Source: a virus
Lineage: Duplodnaviria > Heunggongvirae > Uroviricota > Caudoviricetes
Length of the DNA stretch: 4,531 nt
Reading direction: 5' to 3' (one strand)
Virus record (IMG/VR): IMGVR_UViG_2713896899_000001
Coordinates: 1-4,531 of that record
The position numbers and the translations under genes were made by a program. The notes below the pieces were generated by a model. That model was given only the letters and a program-made list of their open reading frames with translations, did not search any database and had not been told where the DNA came from. Positions 1-4,531 of this stretch are shown one piece after another (position 1 is the first letter of the stretch; each line of letters opens with the position of its first letter).

Positions 1-162
1 GATGGAAACGACTCATCGACGTACTTAATCAGCCAGGAGTTCCCAAAAATGGATAAAACACTTATGGCTATTCAGACTAAATTCACTATCGCCACTTTTA
101 TTGGCGATGAAAAGATGTTTCGTGAGGCCGTCGAAGCCTACAGGAAATGGAGGTCAAAATGA
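1..162 (+). CDS. Partial CDS: 3' end of a gene entering from upstream of the window, or alternatively a 37-aa micro-ORF starting at ATG 49; hypothetical phage protein
   Basis: Frame 1 is open from base 1 to TGA 160-162 (53 codons, ...DEKMFREAVEAYRKWRSK*). The stop overlaps the next gene's ATG (159-161) in an ATGA junction. Internal ATG at 49 is preceded by AGGAG (35-39). Absent from the ORF track because the long reading has no in-window start. I do not recognise the sequence. Confidence 0.4.
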   Translation, partial: DGNDSSTYLISQEFPKMDKTLMAIQTKFTIATFIGDEKMFREAVEAYRKWRSK

Positions 163-347
163 TTCCGGTAGAACTGGCGAAAACTCCAGAGTTAAGTCGA
201 TTAAAAAGAGAATATCACATTGCTGAGGCTCGTTACTGGCGTAAAGCGGGAGATAAATCAAAGAAACAACTTTGTTTATGGCAGGCACAAAGAGAGCGCA
301 TGAATGAGCGCGAATTTCTTTCCGCCCCATCCGAATTACCATTCTGA
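159..347 (+). CDS. Hypothetical small basic protein (62 aa) with C-terminal ...SAPSELPF; first gene of the recombination cluster
   Basis: ORF track gives 147..347, but ATG 159 has GGAGG (149-153) 5 nt upstream and forms an ATGA overlap with the upstream frame's stop, so 159 is the likelier start. Stop TGA 345-347 is embedded in the SD (GAGGTGA) of the next gene. Lys/Arg-rich. No family recognised. Confidence 0.6.
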   Translation: MIPVELAKTPELSRLKREYHIAEARYWRKAGDKSKKQLCLWQAQRERMNEREFLSAPSELPF

Positions 348-355
348 GGTGAATT

Positions 356-1036
356 ATGGGAACTGCGACATTAATACTCGGTGAGTCTGGCACCGGAAAA
401 TCAACCAGCATGAGAAATATCAATCCAGAGGAAGCAATACTTATAAAACCAATAGGCAAGCCGCTACCATTTAAATCAAAAGACTGGCTTGCATGGGATG
501 CCAGAGCAAAAAAAGGAACCGTAGTTACTACTGACAAATGGGACATAATAGTTGCTGTAATTAAGCGTGCTCACGAATACGGAAAAAGAATCGTTATTGT
601 TGATGACTTCCAGTATGTGATGAGCAATGAGTTTATGCGCCGCTCAGAAGAAAAGTCGTTTGATAAATTTACTGAGATAGGCCGCCACGCATGGGAGGTG
701 ATTAAGGCTGCACAGGATGCGCCTGATGACCTGAGAGTCTATTTTCTTGCGCACACCGAAGAAACACCTATGGGGCGCGTGAAAATGAAAACTATCGGCA
801 AAATGCTGGACGAGAAAATCACTGTTGAAGGCATGTTTACTATAGTTCTTCGCACCCTTACCCGTGATGACCAGTTCTTTTTCACCACGAAAAACAACGG
901 TGCAGACACTGTTAAATCCCCAATGGGAATGTTTGATTCCAATGAGATTGATAACGATCTCTCTTTCGTCGATGCCACTGTTTGTGATTACTACGGCATC
1001 AATAATGTTCATCAAATTAAGGAAAACGCCGCATGA
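356..1036 (+). CDS. Sak4-like phage recombination ATPase (RecA-fold P-loop NTPase, AAA_24-type), 226 aa
   Basis: N-terminal Walker A directly after the start (LILGESGTGKSTS), Walker B-like hhhhDD (RIVIVDDFQ). Size and N-terminal P-loop are typical of core-only RecA-like phage Sak4 proteins. Followed by an overlapping SSB-like gene, the arrangement known for Sak4. SD GAGG 346-349. Family call is from motif recall, not a search. Confidence 0.65.
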   Translation: MGTATLILGESGTGKSTSMRNINPEEAILIKPIGKPLPFKSKDWLAWDARAKKGTVVTTDKWDIIVAVIKRAHEYGKRIVIVDDFQYVMSNEFMRRSEEKSFDKFTEIGRHAWEVIKAAQDAPDDLRVYFLAHTEETPMGRVKMKTIGKMLDEKITVEGMFTIVLRTLTRDDQFFFTTKNNGADTVKSPMGMFDSNEIDNDLSFVDATVCDYYGINNVHQIKENAA

Positions 1037-1620
1037 GCAACGTGATTTTTACTTATAACGAAGAAGCAGCACTGACCGCAGGGCAAGGTGGTTTTATTAA
1101 CGAAACTGGCGCTCATATCATTACCATTACTGAAGCAGAACTAAAGCAATCAGAAAAAGGCGCAAAATTTATTGAATTTTCTGGCGAATCCGACGACGGA
1201 CGTAAAATCCAATATCTTAGCGTTTGTGTTCAGAAAAATGACGGCACGGAAAACAAATTTGGCGCAAATGTCGTTCACGCCATGATGGGGTGTGCCGGGA
1301 TTGGACAATTAACGCAACATATGGTTTCCGCCAGTAAATTTGTTGCACCTGAATTTCATGGAAAGAAAATCGGGTTAGTGCTCCAGAAAGTATTAACCAC
1401 AAACAAAAAGACTGGCGCAGACAGCTACCAGATGGAAATACGCATCCCGTTTATTGCACAAACAGGTCAAACCCTTAAAGAAAAGGCAGAAGGCAAGCAA
1501 CCAGAAACTATCGCCAACATGGTCGCCAGTCTCAAAGATAAAGACAATCGCTCTAAAAACGTAAGCCAGAATCATGCAGATGATTATGGTTACAGCCAGA
1601 ACGATTACCCTCCTTTCTGA
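1033..1620 (+). CDS. Non-canonical phage SSB-like protein (195 aa), probable cognate partner of the Sak4-like ATPase; acidic/aromatic C-terminal tail ending in Pro-Phe
   Basis: ATGA overlap with the Sak4 stop (ATG 1033-1035 / TGA 1034-1036), SD AAGGAA 1019-1024. C-terminus ...HADDYGYSQNDYPPF resembles the bacterial SSB tip (DDDIPF) and the T7 gp2.5 acidic tail ending in Phe. The N-terminus does not match canonical E. coli SSB, so the OB-fold is inferred only from context and tail. Confidence 0.5.
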   Translation: MSNVIFTYNEEAALTAGQGGFINETGAHIITITEAELKQSEKGAKFIEFSGESDDGRKIQYLSVCVQKNDGTENKFGANVVHAMMGCAGIGQLTQHMVSASKFVAPEFHGKKIGLVLQKVLTTNKKTGADSYQMEIRIPFIAQTGQTLKEKAEGKQPETIANMVASLKDKDNRSKNVSQNHADDYGYSQNDYPPF

Positions 1621-1643
1621 TTACTGAAAATAAGGCTCCCATT

Positions 1644-1940
1644 ATGCCAGCGCCTCTGTATGGTGCGGATGACCCGCGCAACTGCTCCGGTAGCTCCAAG
1701 GCGGAGGTGCTGGAAAATATCAAAAACAATTTCGACGCGTTTCTTGCTCTGACACCAGAAACAAAAGCAGAACGGATGTACCGACGCGATATACAACTCG
1801 CGCTAAAACAGGAGAAGGACCGAATAAACGAAACATCAATCCGACCATTCCGCAAATCCACATATACCCACTTCCCTGAATATATCGACCCGCGCCTGCG
1901 TAATTACCGCTCACGCTATGGCGCTATCAGTAATGACTGA
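1644..1940 (+). CDS. Hypothetical phage protein (98 aa)
   Basis: ORF track ORF, same strand as operon, SD AAGG 1632-1635 about 8 nt upstream of ATG. Stop TGA 1938-1940 lies inside the SD (GAGGAA) of the next gene. No recognisable domain by eye. Confidence 0.6.
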   Translation: MPAPLYGADDPRNCSGSSKAEVLENIKNNFDAFLALTPETKAERMYRRDIQLALKQEKDRINETSIRPFRKSTYTHFPEYIDPRLRNYRSRYGAISND

Positions 1941-1950
1941 GGAATTAACA

Positions 1951-2241
1951 ATGAAAACAATGAAGCTAAACATCGACCTCGGAAAATACGTTATTACCGG
2001 AACCAAACACGACCTGATTCTTAGCGAAAGAGGAATTATCAAAGAAGGCGAGAATGCAGGGAAAGAAACACTAAGTCGTATCGGTTATTACAGCAAGTTT
2101 GAGCATCTGGTCAAAGAGTTATGCAACCGTGAAATCCTGTTATCTCAGACGCAGACGCTACAGGATATTCAGCAGCATATCGAAACTTTAGGTATGTCAC
2201 TTAGCATGGCTATTGACCAGTTCATGGAGAGTAAATCATGA
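1951..2241 (+). CDS. Hypothetical phage protein (96 aa; 107 aa if started at ATG 1918)
   Basis: ORF track start is 1918. ATG 1951 is preferred because GAGGAA (1939-1944) sits 6 nt upstream, whereas 1918 has no SD and would overlap the preceding gene by 23 nt. Stop TGA 2239-2241 overlaps the next start. No family recognised. Confidence 0.6.
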
Positions 2242-2402
2242 GAGGACTTGCATACAATCCCGGCATTCTTCCGGCAGAAATGATTATTCGCCAACGCGTA
2301 AAGCCAATGCCATCGAGAGAGGAATTACTTAAGAGAAATTCTTTTCCATCAGTGAATCAAAACAAATATCTGAATGCGATGTTGCGGAGTGGGAAGAAAT
2401 GA
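2238..2402 (+). CDS. Small basic hypothetical protein (54 aa), not in the supplied ORF track
   Basis: Manual translation: [57 protein letters not shown] 2238-2240 overlaps the upstream stop (TGA 2239-2241) and its stop TGA 2400-2402 overlaps the downstream start ATG 2399-2401. SD GGAGAG 2226-2231. Fills an otherwise ~160-bp gap in a tightly packed operon. Confidence 0.5.
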
Positions 2403-2896
2403 GACAAATGACACTAATTGAGATGGATGGTTTTCTGAAAGGTAAATGCATCCCAAGTGATTTAAAGGTTAACGAAACAAACGCTGAATATCTTGTCCGT
2501 AAGTTCAGTGAACTTGAATCAAAACTCAACGAGCAGCGTGAGTATTACGAGGGCGTTATCTCGGATGGGAGTAAGCGTATTGCTGAACTGGAGAAAAGCG
2601 AAGAGCAACTCATCAACGAGCGTGACCATGCTGAGTATGCTTTAGCTGATATGTATTTTGCAGCAACCGGGAACAGGCCGGAATGGAGTAACTGTTTCAG
2701 TTTTTCAGATGCAGTAGATGCCGTAGTTGACAGAATTGCTGATTTAGAAGCTAAACAGCCATCGCCAGTAGTACCGGAAGAAAAACCAATGCCTAACCCT
2801 CTTAGCAGGTACGCGGTCGATGCTGTTGCCGCTATTGCAGAGGTGAGAGGCTGGAACGCCTGCCGCGCTGCAATGCTTCAGGGAAAAGGAGAGTGA
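2399..2896 (+). CDS. Probable Ead/Ea22-like family protein (165 aa) with central coiled-coil
   Basis: ATGA overlap with the preceding small ORF. Heptad-like, charged central segment ([17 protein letters not shown]...[15 protein letters not shown]). C-terminus ...[21 protein letters not shown] matches my recollection of the conserved C-terminal motif of lambdoid Ead/Ea22-like proteins. Unverified without HMM search. Confidence 0.5.
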
Positions 2897-2897
2897 T

Positions 2898-3452
2898 ATG
2901 ACCACTATAACCGATAAGAAACAGTATCCAGGCGAGCAATATCTTAATGAGCTGATCACCAACATAGAGTTTGCTGCAAGGGCACCAGTTGAAGTCGTGA
3001 GAGCGATGGCAGCAGAGCTACAGAAGCGGCGCGAAGCTGATAGTGCAGAACCTGTAAGCCAAACTTACAAGTTGCCAGTTAATACACCTTGCCAAGATGC
3101 GCCAGCCCATATCTGGCTGCAAACGGCTGGAGTATGGCCAGAAGATGGCGAGTTAAGCGAATTAACGTGGTGCAGCCACAATCAGCACCATGATGACACG
3201 CTATATGTTCGAGCTGACCTTGTGAATGGCAACTATCCGGTAACTCCGGATGGTTGGATAAGCTGTGGTGAGCGAATGCCGGAAGAAACGGGTGACATTA
3301 TTGTTGTTTCGGATGGCATTGTAATGTCAGGGATTTCTTATTCTCGTCGTGACGGGTTCTATATAGCCGCATTGGAGTACGACGACGATGAGCCAATTGG
3401 CGGTGTAACCCACTGGATGCCGCTACCGGAACCACCGCAGGAGGTGAAGTAA
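2898..3452 (+). CDS. Probable DUF551-domain phage protein (184 aa)
   Basis: SD AAAGGAGAG 2885-2893, ATG 2 nt after the upstream stop. C-terminal region GWISCGERMPEETGDIIVV...GGVTHWMPLPEPP fits the W...LPE...HWMPLP pattern I associate with DUF551 in enterobacterial prophages. Locally GC-rich (one 60-nt line counted at about 58% GC versus about 40-43% in the Sak4 and 1951-2241 regions). Confidence 0.5.
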   Translation: MTTITDKKQYPGEQYLNELITNIEFAARAPVEVVRAMAAELQKRREADSAEPVSQTYKLPVNTPCQDAPAHIWLQTAGVWPEDGELSELTWCSHNQHHDDTLYVRADLVNGNYPVTPDGWISCGERMPEETGDIIVVSDGIVMSGISYSRRDGFYIAALEYDDDEPIGGVTHWMPLPEPPQEVK

Positions 3453-3736
3453 TGGACTCCTTCGCGAAATATACGATTATTGACTGGATAGCCTTCCTTC
3501 AGGTTTTGCTCATCTGGTTTTATATGGCTTACAGGAGTGGACAGTGGATTGTCAGTGTAGCCTGTAGCAAGGGATGGCGTTGGTGGAACCGAAAGAATAA
3601 AAAAGCACTGGCATTGGATTCGTTTTACGAAGCATTCAATCTTAACAGCCTTCAGCCTGGTTCTGTCATTGTAGTCACCACTCAAAGCGGCATGACGATA
3701 CAAATTCACAAGCCAAAGGAGGAAGGTCGTGGCTAA
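3452..3736 (+). CDS. Small predicted single-pass membrane protein (94 aa), unknown function
   Basis: TAATG overlap with the upstream stop (TAA 3450-3452 / ATG 3452-3454), SD AGGAGG 3438-3443. About 19-residue hydrophobic stretch IIDWIAFLQVLLIWFYMAY followed by a basic cluster KGWRWWNRKNKK (positive-inside rule implies a cytoplasmic C-terminal domain). Confidence 0.55.
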   Translation: MDSFAKYTIIDWIAFLQVLLIWFYMAYRSGQWIVSVACSKGWRWWNRKNKKALALDSFYEAFNLNSLQPGSVIVVTTQSGMTIQIHKPKEEGRG

Positions 3737-4013
3737 CCTGCAACTTGCCGTCAAAGGTGAATACTTCGACGCCATGATTCGCGGAGAGAAAACGGAAGAG
3801 TATCGCCTGTGTAATGACTACTGGAATAAGCGAATCATGTTCCGGGAATATGACCGCCTGATTATCACAAAGGGATATCCGAAGCGCGACGATTCCAGCC
3901 GCAGAATTGATATTCCGTATGACGGATATGAAATCAAGACAATCACACATCCGCACTTCGGTGATAAACCGGTAAAGGTATACGCGATAAAGGTAAATAT
4001 CGGCAATGAATAA
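3729..4013 (+). CDS. Small ASCH/PUA-like fold protein (DUF3850-type), 94 aa, GTG start
   Basis: GTG 3729 preceded by a strong SD AAAGGAGGAAGG (3715-3726); overlaps the preceding gene by 8 nt. N-terminal LQLAVKGEYFDAMIRGEKTEEYR matches the ASCH-type beta1-loop-helix signature (compare E. coli YqfB [22 protein letters not shown]), followed by DRLIITKGY. Fold call is motif-based and tentative. Confidence 0.5.
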   Translation: MANLQLAVKGEYFDAMIRGEKTEEYRLCNDYWNKRIMFREYDRLIITKGYPKRDDSSRRIDIPYDGYEIKTITHPHFGDKPVKVYAIKVNIGNE

Positions 4014-4017
4014 CAAT

Positions 4018-4042
4018 CCTCGCACTCGCGGGGATTTCTTTT
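4018..4042 (+). terminator. Putative Rho-independent terminator (hairpin 1)
   Basis: Stem CCTCGC (4018-4023) / GCGGGG (4028-4033), 6 bp with one G-U pair, loop ACTC, followed by ATTTCTTTT (4034-4042). Lies 5 nt after the stop of the 3729-4013 gene. Confidence 0.45.
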
Positions 4043-4049
4043 ATCTGAA

Positions 4050-4072
4050 CTCGCTACGGCGGGTTTTGTTTT
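4050..4072 (+). terminator. Putative Rho-independent terminator (hairpin 2, tandem)
   Basis: Stem CTCGC (4050-4054) / GCGGG (4059-4063), 5 bp with one G-U pair, UACG tetraloop (UNCG-type), followed by TTTTGTTTT (4064-4072). Sequence-related to hairpin 1. Confidence 0.45.
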
Positions 4073-4085
4073 ATGGAGACAAGAA

Positions 4086-4430
4086 ATGTCAGATTTGGCT
4101 ATGAAGGTTTTGAAATGGCAATCGACTGGCGATGTTGGCATCAGTAGCGCAACTCTTGCCTCAATCGCATGTGGCCTGAAAAAGAATATCTATGGTCATA
4201 GCTTCGGTGCTCCACATGACGCAGCCGATTTCAGACGATGCGTTGCACTTGTTGAGCAGATTCCAGAAATCAGAGCTTCATTCGACAAAGTTGCAAAGCG
4301 CGTTCCGGCATTCAAAGGCATCCTCAACGAATGGGATTCCCTCGTTGCTCTGTTGAAGTCTGAAATGAAGATACACGGAAACAAAGCACCAGAGACTTAC
4401 AGAAGAATTAGCGAGTTACGCAAGGACTAA
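4086..4430 (+). CDS. Hypothetical protein (114 aa), isolated gene downstream of the terminators
   Basis: ORF track ORF, SD GGAGA 4075-4079 about 6 nt upstream of ATG 4086, stop TAA 4428-4430. Sequence [31 protein letters not shown]... has no motif I recognise and no obvious hydrophobic TM segment. Confidence 0.55.
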
Positions 4431-4435
4431 CCACA

Positions 4436-4454
4436 GCCTCACACTCGATGAGGC
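4436..4454 (+). other. Stem-loop (6-bp stem GCCTCA/TGAGGC, 7-nt loop) immediately after the last gene; not a canonical terminator
   Basis: GCCTCA (4436-4441) and TGAGGC (4449-4454) are exact reverse complements. No U-tract follows (CTGCCAGCTTC), so it is more likely an RNA stability or processing element or a protein-binding site than an intrinsic terminator. Confidence 0.3.
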
Positions 4455-4501
4455 CTGCCAGCTTCTCAATAGACTGGCCCCCTGAATCTCCAGACAACCA
4501 A

Positions 4502-4521
4502 TATCACTTAAATAAGTGATA
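4502..4521. promoter_or_regulatory. Perfect 20-bp palindrome TATCACTT-AAAT-AAGTGATA, operator-like
   Basis: Arms 4502-4509 and 4514-4521 are exact reverse complements (8 bp each) around a 4-bp AT spacer. Half-sites TATCAC/GTGATA are identical to the outer hexamers of the lambda CI/Cro operator consensus (TATCACCGCCGGTGATA) but with 8 instead of 5 intervening bp. Sits in non-coding DNA at the window edge. Confidence 0.4.
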
Positions 4522-4531
4522 GTCTTAATAC

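Follow-up and report, generated by a model that had tools for sequence, protein, structure and literature searches.

ORF114, an accessory gene of the early-left operon in a P22/HK620-like lambdoid prophage, and its large protein family

We analyzed a stretch of 4,531 nucleotides (nt) from a virus of the Caudoviricetes (positions 1 to 4,531 of IMG/VR record IMGVR_UViG_2713896899_000001), hereafter the window, and in particular an open reading frame (ORF) of 114 amino acids (aa) that an initial annotation had described as an isolated gene, possibly a moron. We found that this gene is almost certainly an accessory cassette of the ORF114 family. As a sequence it is already known, as ORF114 of phage 434, gene 32 of phage HK022 and PHROG 1229. 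The window as a whole reads as the distal part of a pL-type early-left operon in a P22/HK620-like lambdoid prophage.

Identity and conservation of ORF114

The boundaries of the ORF (4086-4430, plus strand, ATG start) were exactly those given by the initial annotation. In a PHROGs search, the protein matched phrog_1229 over residues 1-114 (E 8e-51), and only families of unknown function were returned. Translated searches showed 99.1% identity with the homologue in the temperate Lederbergvirus phage Huey, 98.2% with those in mEp043, mEp213 and the Stx2 phages 1717 and 2851, and 96.5% with HK022 gene 32 (HK022_32). The identity with phage 434 ORF114 (GenBank M60848) was 95.6% over all 114 residues. 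No family was matched at E ≤ 1 in Pfam, NCBIfam or PADLOC, in agreement with the earlier remark that the sequence has no assignable motif. These searches also revealed no likeness to a phage protein of known structural or regulatory function, a kind of homology that the initial annotation had considered incompatible with its proposal. A literature search on the ORF114 family, its accession numbers, PHROG 1229, and exo-xis combined with anti-defence found no paper on the family.

ORF114 was present in 940 of 5426 complete Escherichia coli genomes (~17%), at 1220 places, and was annotated as "hypothetical protein" in every case. The gene is under purifying selection, with a ratio of nonsynonymous to synonymous substitution rates (dN/dS) of 0.03-0.19 and a dS of 0.10-0.18 among four alleles (window, 434, HK022 and E. 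coli 536). In the Stx2a Traversvirus phages 06-3462 (locus L108, 1474-2327), phi419 and phi345, only codons 1-56 of ORF114 remain (96% identical), forming part of a 76-aa ORF that runs at its end into an orphan adenine DNA methyltransferase gene. This overlap indicates a mosaic joint inside the ORF, as do database proteins that join ORF114 halves to ERF, Kil, a MazG-like domain or Ea22 (P0015, P0017, P0029, P0035, P0052, P0053). Such E. coli "fusions" are singletons and resemble recombinants or miscalls.

The ORF114 family and its predicted fold

The family to which ORF114 belongs is large. An exhaustive HMMER search recovered 1878 representative clusters (50% identity) at E ≤ 0.001, including 182 at E ≤ 1e-10, and a profile search of a 5.8-billion-protein set recovered 494 proteins at E ≤ 1e-5, with neither an informative name nor a credible Pfam domain among the 120 matches listed. 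When 43 diverse members were compared with Pfam, no relevant family and no DNA-binding domain were detected, and a scan of 20 longer members against Pfam found no significant domain and no fusion partner. Architecture variants were noted among P0085, P0135, P0139, P0150, P0163, P0175, P0188, P0189, P0080, P0083, P0086 and P0192. One architecture is a tandem duplication of the domain, in which the first copy is degenerate but retains D48 and C52. Zinc-ribbon-like extensions (CxxC...HxxC or CxxC...CxxC) recur at the N-terminus and an extension of ~150 aa recurs at the C-terminus; none of the extensions matched Pfam.

Family members are carried by lambdoid and P22-like phages of Escherichia, Salmonella and Cronobacter, by Vibrio phages of ~60 kb, by an Aeromonas phage, the Mu-like Haemophilus phage SuMu and Arthrobacter phages, and by a Brevibacterium prophage. 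The Nonanavirus phages Bas82 and AVIO78A also carry homologues, with 42% identity for the Bas82 copy. Bas82 belongs to the BASEL collection, which is focused on virulent phages (PMC11990801). Furthermore, homologues were found on 109 Pseudomonas plasmids, including megaplasmids of the pBT2436 type, on a few plasmids of other genera, and in genomes or metagenome-assembled genomes of Burkholderiales, Acidobacteriota, Polyangiaceae (Myxococcota), Alphaproteobacteria, Patescibacteria and Lutibacter.

The family always sits in an early or accessory genomic region. In Bas82 the homologue follows, and overlaps the end of, an RdgC-family gene; in SuMu it lies in the early region before GemA and Mor; in the Brevibacterium prophage it comes after YqaJ-RecT-SSB; and on a 69-kb contig (L012) it has a DUF3799 exonuclease on one side and an AAA_23 ATPase on the other. 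On plasmid pBT2436 (L093, 3990-10627) the homologue stands beside two orphan DNA methyltransferases and near the gene for an SRAP (SOS-response-associated) peptidase. On pF051 (L094, 3656-7088) an SRAP peptidase gene is again near, with an RNA ligase and an AAA ATPase upstream, and a 3'-5' exonuclease was also found near plasmid homologues. Clustering of the neighbours at 59 distinct IMG/VR loci revealed no constant partner, the commonest neighbour family occurring at 8 of them. Among 86 immediate neighbours searched against Pfam, the top matches were RdgC (4), HU (4), Mu Gp11_C (3) and integrase (3), with excisionase at 2. Since the neighbours are heterogeneous and no partner is conserved, the ORF114 protein most likely works alone.

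For the ~12.6-kDa protein, AlphaFold2, run with a 43-sequence alignment, predicted an all-alpha fold of seven helices with one long loop at residues 29-45 (mean predicted local distance difference test score, pLDDT, 96.2; predicted template modelling score, pTM, 0.89). The structure search that the initial annotation had advised was carried out with this model. Foldseek found no match among solved structures at E ≤ 0.001, and the viral structure library BFVD yielded only uncharacterised relatives, with a Clavibacter phage protein as the third fold match. It should be noted that BFVD entry A0A3G5AI15 of the giant virus Sylvanvirus (template modelling score 0.68, Foldseek E 0.069, 17% identity) may be a distant relative or a chance match.

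Conservation was computed on 164 domains that were non-redundant at 70% identity. Across these domains P43 and C52 are 100% conserved, and W11, G18, S20, S21, D45, D48, R51 and W83 are 98-99% conserved; all ten residues are present in the window protein. In the model, S20 and S21 would stand at the N-terminus of predicted helix 2, and D45, D48 and C52, spaced i, i+3 and i+7 on helix 3, would lie on one face. Because polar residues are near-absolutely invariant and a single cysteine is never substituted, we infer that they indicate a catalytic, metal-binding or ligand-binding site more than a scaffold.

Two other leads were not upheld. The isoelectric point (pI) of the window protein is 9.4, which had suggested nucleic-acid binding. 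However, pI is not conserved and the family median is 5.8, so this was rejected as a family property, and the pI pattern leaves both general nucleic-acid binding and DNA mimicry unsupported. A helix-hairpin-helix (HhH or HhH-GPD) fold, suggested by the motif G-[IV]-S-S-x-T ... P-x-D, was tested by profile matching and by structural similarity to glycosylases and was not supported.

Cassette architecture, flanking signals and the IS2 end

The window is a mosaic of segments with ~95-97% identity to HK620, TL-2011a, JEP4, HK629 and many Stx phages. Its genes are tightly packed on the plus strand, and ORF114 has the same orientation as the coupled Sak4/Abc2/Ea22/DUF551/DUF4752 operon (Table 1). 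The initial annotation had placed the gene in the int-proximal part of a pL operon, and the relatives agree with this: in 434, HK022, Huey and the thrW prophage remnant of E. coli 536, ORF114 is followed by t'I and then directly by xis-int. In the window, the insertion sequence IS2 at 4470 and the window end cover whatever lay 3' of ORF114.

Table 1 Features of the window around ORF114 and along the early-left operon
Feature	Position	Strand	Basis or remark
AAA_24/Sak4-like ATPase	356-1036	+	Pfam
195-aa protein, between Sak4-like ATPase and Abc2	1033-1620	+	no Pfam match at E ≤ 0.001
Anti-RecBCD protein Abc2	1644-1940	+	Pfam Anti-RecBCD_p2, E 4.8e-38
DUF5405, DUF2737, Ea22-like protein, DUF551 and DUF4752 genes		+	Pfam
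94-aa gene	3729-4013	+	ASCH-domain protein according to RefSeq annotation of relatives
Terminator-like hairpin 1 with T-run	4015-4044 (stem 4015-4036)	+	9 pairs, 5 GC, T-rich tail; homologous to tL4
Terminator-like hairpin 2 with T-run, TTTTGTTTTAT	4047-4074 (stem 4047-4066)	+	terminator scan
Shine-Dalgarno GGAG	4075-4078	+	7 nt before ATG; part of junction TTTTAT(T)GGAGA
ORF114 coding sequence	4086-4430	+	ATG start, 114 aa; phage 434 ORF114 / HK022 gene 32 / PHROG 1229 family
Weak hairpin GCCTCA...TGAGGC	4434-4457	+	directly after stop codon, without U-tract
IS2 left end, outside phage cassette	4470-4531	+	left inverted repeat (IRL) 4470-4511; match to published IRL
Perfect palindrome	4502-4521 (arms 4502-4510, 4513-4521)		9+9 nt, 100% complementary
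OrfA docking site TAAATAA	4509-4515	+	IS2 left end (OrfA repressor)
Start (TGAT) of extended -10 promoter P_IRL	4517-4520	+	IS2 left end

Both tandem terminators reported upstream of the gene by the initial annotation were recovered as predicted Rho-independent terminators, each a GC-rich hairpin followed by a U-tract. Hairpin 1 has a folding energy of -13.1 kcal/mol (z -5.3, equalled by 0 of 200 shuffles) and is kept in 434, HK022, E. coli 536 and lambda; the feature "t-L4" of the phage 434 record M60848 maps to it. For hairpin 2 the folding energy is -11.0 kcal/mol (z -3.3 relative to shuffled sequence); 434, HK022 and lambda carry it unchanged, and it is conserved in E. coli 536 as well. 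The number of terminator-like sites, two in a scan of 932 nt, is by itself not above chance (1.1 ± 1.2 in shuffles). A scan of 3600-4531 for sigma-70 consensus sites found 0 promoter-like sites on either strand. Only ~8 nt separate the T-run of hairpin 2 from the Shine-Dalgarno sequence, which leaves no room for a promoter there. A 32-aa ORF (4006-4104, ATG at 4006) that crosses both hairpins into the start of ORF114 is almost certainly no gene, and Rfam detected no structured RNA in the window at E ≤ 1.

Comparison with related phages, which the initial annotation had advised, showed that the presence of the gene varies between syntenic genomes. ORF114 of 434 and gene 32 of HK022 are the same gene as in the window, with the same upstream hairpins, Shine-Dalgarno sequence and downstream hairpin. 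In lambda, ORF114 is altogether absent, and the order is tL4-type hairpins, orf55 (lambdap35), a hairpin and xis. In 434, HK022 and Huey the order is hairpins, orf55, hairpin, ORF114, weak hairpin, t'I and xis, so that these phages have an extra orf55 cassette before ORF114 and have t'I and xis-int after it. In the window and E. coli 536, in contrast, the hairpins lead to ORF114 with orf55 precisely absent, and the window has IS2 where the other phages continue. The ORF114 cassette thus measures ~440 bp and is inserted in 434 where lambda runs from the orf55 hairpin straight to xis.

The cassettes start 8-12 nt past the terminator T-run at a shared junction, TTTTAT(T)GGAGA, which is found ahead of orf55 and ORF114 in 434, HK022, Huey and lambda. 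The repeated hairpin/Shine-Dalgarno junctions suggest that the cassettes are exchanged by recombination between them. Recurrent junction sites were seen at 4066-4085 in the window, at 330-565 in locus L003, at 2415-2500 in L095 and at 1540-1900 in L107 (lambda). ORF114 and its neighbours assort independently: ORF114 occurs in 940 genomes and the ASCH gene upstream of it in 1678, and at most 309 genomes hold a place covering at least 80% of window positions 3950-4531. The G+C content of ORF114 (0.48-0.50) lies within the range of the operon (0.40-0.51). In the E. coli 536 remnant, located at a tRNA-Thr gene (thrW; L002, 5927-7955) with IS100 directly upstream, a fragment of the ASCH gene is followed by an intact ORF114, which differs from the window allele by 1 amino acid, a helix-turn-helix (xis-like) gene and an integrase.

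On the downstream side, the initial annotation had bounded the gene by a stem-loop and a perfect palindrome. The stem-loop exists, and 434, HK022, Huey and E. coli 536 all carry it unchanged. However, it is weak (-9.1 kcal/mol, z -1.85, with 9 of 200 shuffles equally good), the terminator scan did not report it, and it is not a terminator since it has no U-tract; a role as a processing or stability element is possible. The palindrome is also real but bounds nothing of the phage, as it belongs to the left end of IS2. Window positions 4470-4527 are identical to the published IS2 left end used as the L79 substrate and IRL oligonucleotide, [TAGACTGGCCCCCTGAATCTCCAGACAACCAATATCACTTAA]ATAAGTGATAGTCTTA (PMC3299598). 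The assignment to IS2 was based on identity to the 42-bp IRL together with the adjacent OrfA site and P_IRL, all of which were found, and the palindrome spans the inner IRL end, the OrfA docking site and the first bases of P_IRL. A 70-nt stretch of this end had 20,619 occurrences, on chromosomes and plasmids, in 4710 E. coli genomes, in which IS2 transposase genes adjoin it (e.g., at locus L001), and homology to the related phages and prophages (Huey, 434, 536) ends at 4469-4470. The palindrome was therefore rejected as a phage operator or att site, and the identification clears a false lead, the site being the IS2 OrfA operator region and no phage regulatory site. The element inserted 39 nt past the ORF114 stop codon, displacing t'I, which sits ~60 nt downstream of ORF114 in relatives. 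As far as the sequence can tell, it parts the early-left operon from the t'I and xis-int found downstream in relatives, and it may uncouple pL transcription from xis/int and help to immobilise the prophage.

Among the other genes of the window, the HK620 counterpart of the 195-aa protein is annotated as a single-strand DNA-binding protein (SSB). In phage APC_JM3.2, one gene beneath the match to this region is named DUF669.

Expression and candidate function of ORF114

In lambda, the pL terminators are read through by N-modified RNA polymerase. With two stable terminators upstream and no promoter-like site, ORF114 would be silent in the lysogen and transcribed only with N antitermination, and we consider antitermination-dependent delayed-early expression probable on the basis of the sequence and lambda biology. 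After infection or induction, N-modified RNA polymerase would read through from pL, so that ORF114 at the int-proximal end of the operon would be co-expressed with the Sak4, SSB-like and Abc2 recombination and anti-RecBCD genes. The protein, encoded by a stand-alone accessory gene, would act by itself as a small enzyme or as a ligand- or metal-binding effector, on a target that is conserved across bacteria. It would do so while the mobile element establishes itself, serving host takeover or counter-defence instead of lysogenic conversion; the homologues in a phage of the virulent-phage collection, in Vibrio phages and on megaplasmids argue against a conversion gene expressed by the lysogen. 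Taken whole, this explanation has somewhat less than an even chance of being right, a grading that reflects the mechanism, and the assignment of ORF114 as a host-takeover or counter-defence effector is tentative and rather doubtful.

Possible functional analogues lie in operons of the same type, namely the small early counter-defence proteins Abc2, Gam and Ral. Like ORF114, P22 Abc2 and lambda Gam and Ral are stand-alone small proteins of the early-left operon. The analogy is functional only, as none of the three has sequence or fold similarity to the ORF114 protein.

Several points weigh against this explanation. No experiment or homology in PADLOC, Pfam, NCBIfam or the literature ties the family to any function. 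Phage early regions are full of unrelated small genes, which makes location alone weak evidence for counter-defence. The placement of invariant residues on one helix face was derived from secondary structure; D45-P-x-D48 and S20-S-x-T may be nothing more than common N-capping boxes of helices, and G18, P43, W11 and W83 could be structural. The terminators and the antitermination are predictions, and the promoter scan covered sigma-70 consensus sites only. In addition, a marked sensitivity of Bas82 to Old and to the restriction-modification systems tested has been reported (PMC11990801). As Bas82 is sensitive to restriction-modification despite its 42%-identical homologue, a broad anti-restriction role is unlikely.

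The recurrence of DNA-transaction genes nearby would also fit an accessory factor of a DNA recombination and repair module, which would adjust the activity of the phage recombinase, or of nucleases and repair proteins of the host, in early replication. Such genes are the Sak4-like AAA_24 ATPase, SSB-like protein and Abc2 of the window, the RdgC-family gene overlapped in Bas82, the DUF3799 exonuclease and AAA_23 ATPase around the L012 copy, YqaJ-RecT-SSB in Brevibacterium, the SRAP peptidase and 3'-5' exonuclease near plasmid copies, and the RdgC, HU, integrase and excisionase matches among the immediate neighbours. However, early phage regions always hold genes of this kind and the association may be positional only, no neighbour is constant (8 of 59 loci at best), and neither a conserved pI nor a DNA-binding domain was found, so we regard this role as unlikely. 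A role in modulating the choice between lysis and lysogeny, or excision and integration, suggested by analogy with the lambda exo-xis genes, is very unlikely. Those genes (Ea8.5, orf55/lambdap35, orf60a, orf61, orf63) occupy the same niche as ORF114, that of small genes which are not essential, lie between the recombination functions and xis and are carried on the pL transcript antiterminated by N, with the same tL4-type hairpins upstream. ORF114 lies directly upstream of xis-int in all lambdoid relatives, excisionase or integrase accounts for 5 of the 86 immediate neighbour proteins, and the exo-xis region of lambda and Stx phages has been reported to affect the lysogenic-lytic decision (PMC8614690). 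Yet lambda does without ORF114, and its relatives, unlike the exo-xis genes, reach far beyond lambdoid phages, with no annotated xis-int neighbour in Bas82, the Vibrio phages, the Mu-like phage or the megaplasmids. Kinship with lambda Ea8.5 was rejected, as the family profile aligned to it with an hhalign probability of 0.06.

A moron is a gene that has been added, together with a promoter and a terminator of its own, between two genes that are neighbours in related phages, and that is expressed from the prophage. The moron reading of the initial annotation, in which the repressed prophage would express ORF114 and confer on the lysogen a host-directed trait such as exclusion or defence, survives in part: the gene is a variable accessory cassette, present or absent between homologous flanks, bounded by hairpins in comparison with lambda and assorting independently of its neighbours, and it has stayed intact in the degraded E. 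coli 536 remnant. As a single-gene presence/absence cassette, with a terminator downstream in relatives, it resembles cor of HK022 (labelled "moron gene product", AF069308). In relatives the terminator is t'I, and the window retains only the hairpin at 4434-4457. In contrast to morons, ORF114 has no promoter of its own, has terminators upstream instead, lies in the orientation of the early operon and shows no anomaly of base composition. Its lack of a PADLOC match and its homologues in plasmids and in a phage of the virulent-phage collection, beyond temperate phages, also speak against a classical moron, which is quite unlikely. That the ORF is spurious or decaying, without function, could be argued from the lack of annotation anywhere and from the Traversvirus remnants of 56 codons. 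This reading has next to no probability and is effectively refuted already by conservation, namely the low dN/dS and the invariant residues across 1878 diverged clusters, to which the very confident structure model and the good Shine-Dalgarno sequence before the start codon add.

As a sequence feature, ORF114 is ordinary; GenBank has contained it ever since the int-xis record of phage 434. Its family is noteworthy, being large, without a Pfam model, structurally orphan and marked by an invariant constellation of polar residues and cysteine. It is conceivable, although rather unlikely, that the family is an unrecognised small enzyme or ligand/metal-binding protein with a seven-helix fold. Temperate and virulent phages and megaplasmids of many bacterial phyla would in that case use it early in establishment to act on a host component common to all bacteria, and it might represent, e.g., a new type of effector for host takeover or counter-defence. 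Families of this kind in the early accessory regions of phages and plasmids have repeatedly been a source of new host-takeover and anti-defence activities. The ORF114 family is thus a reasonable candidate for functional discovery, with a near-identical protein available in the tractable model phages 434, HK022 and Huey.

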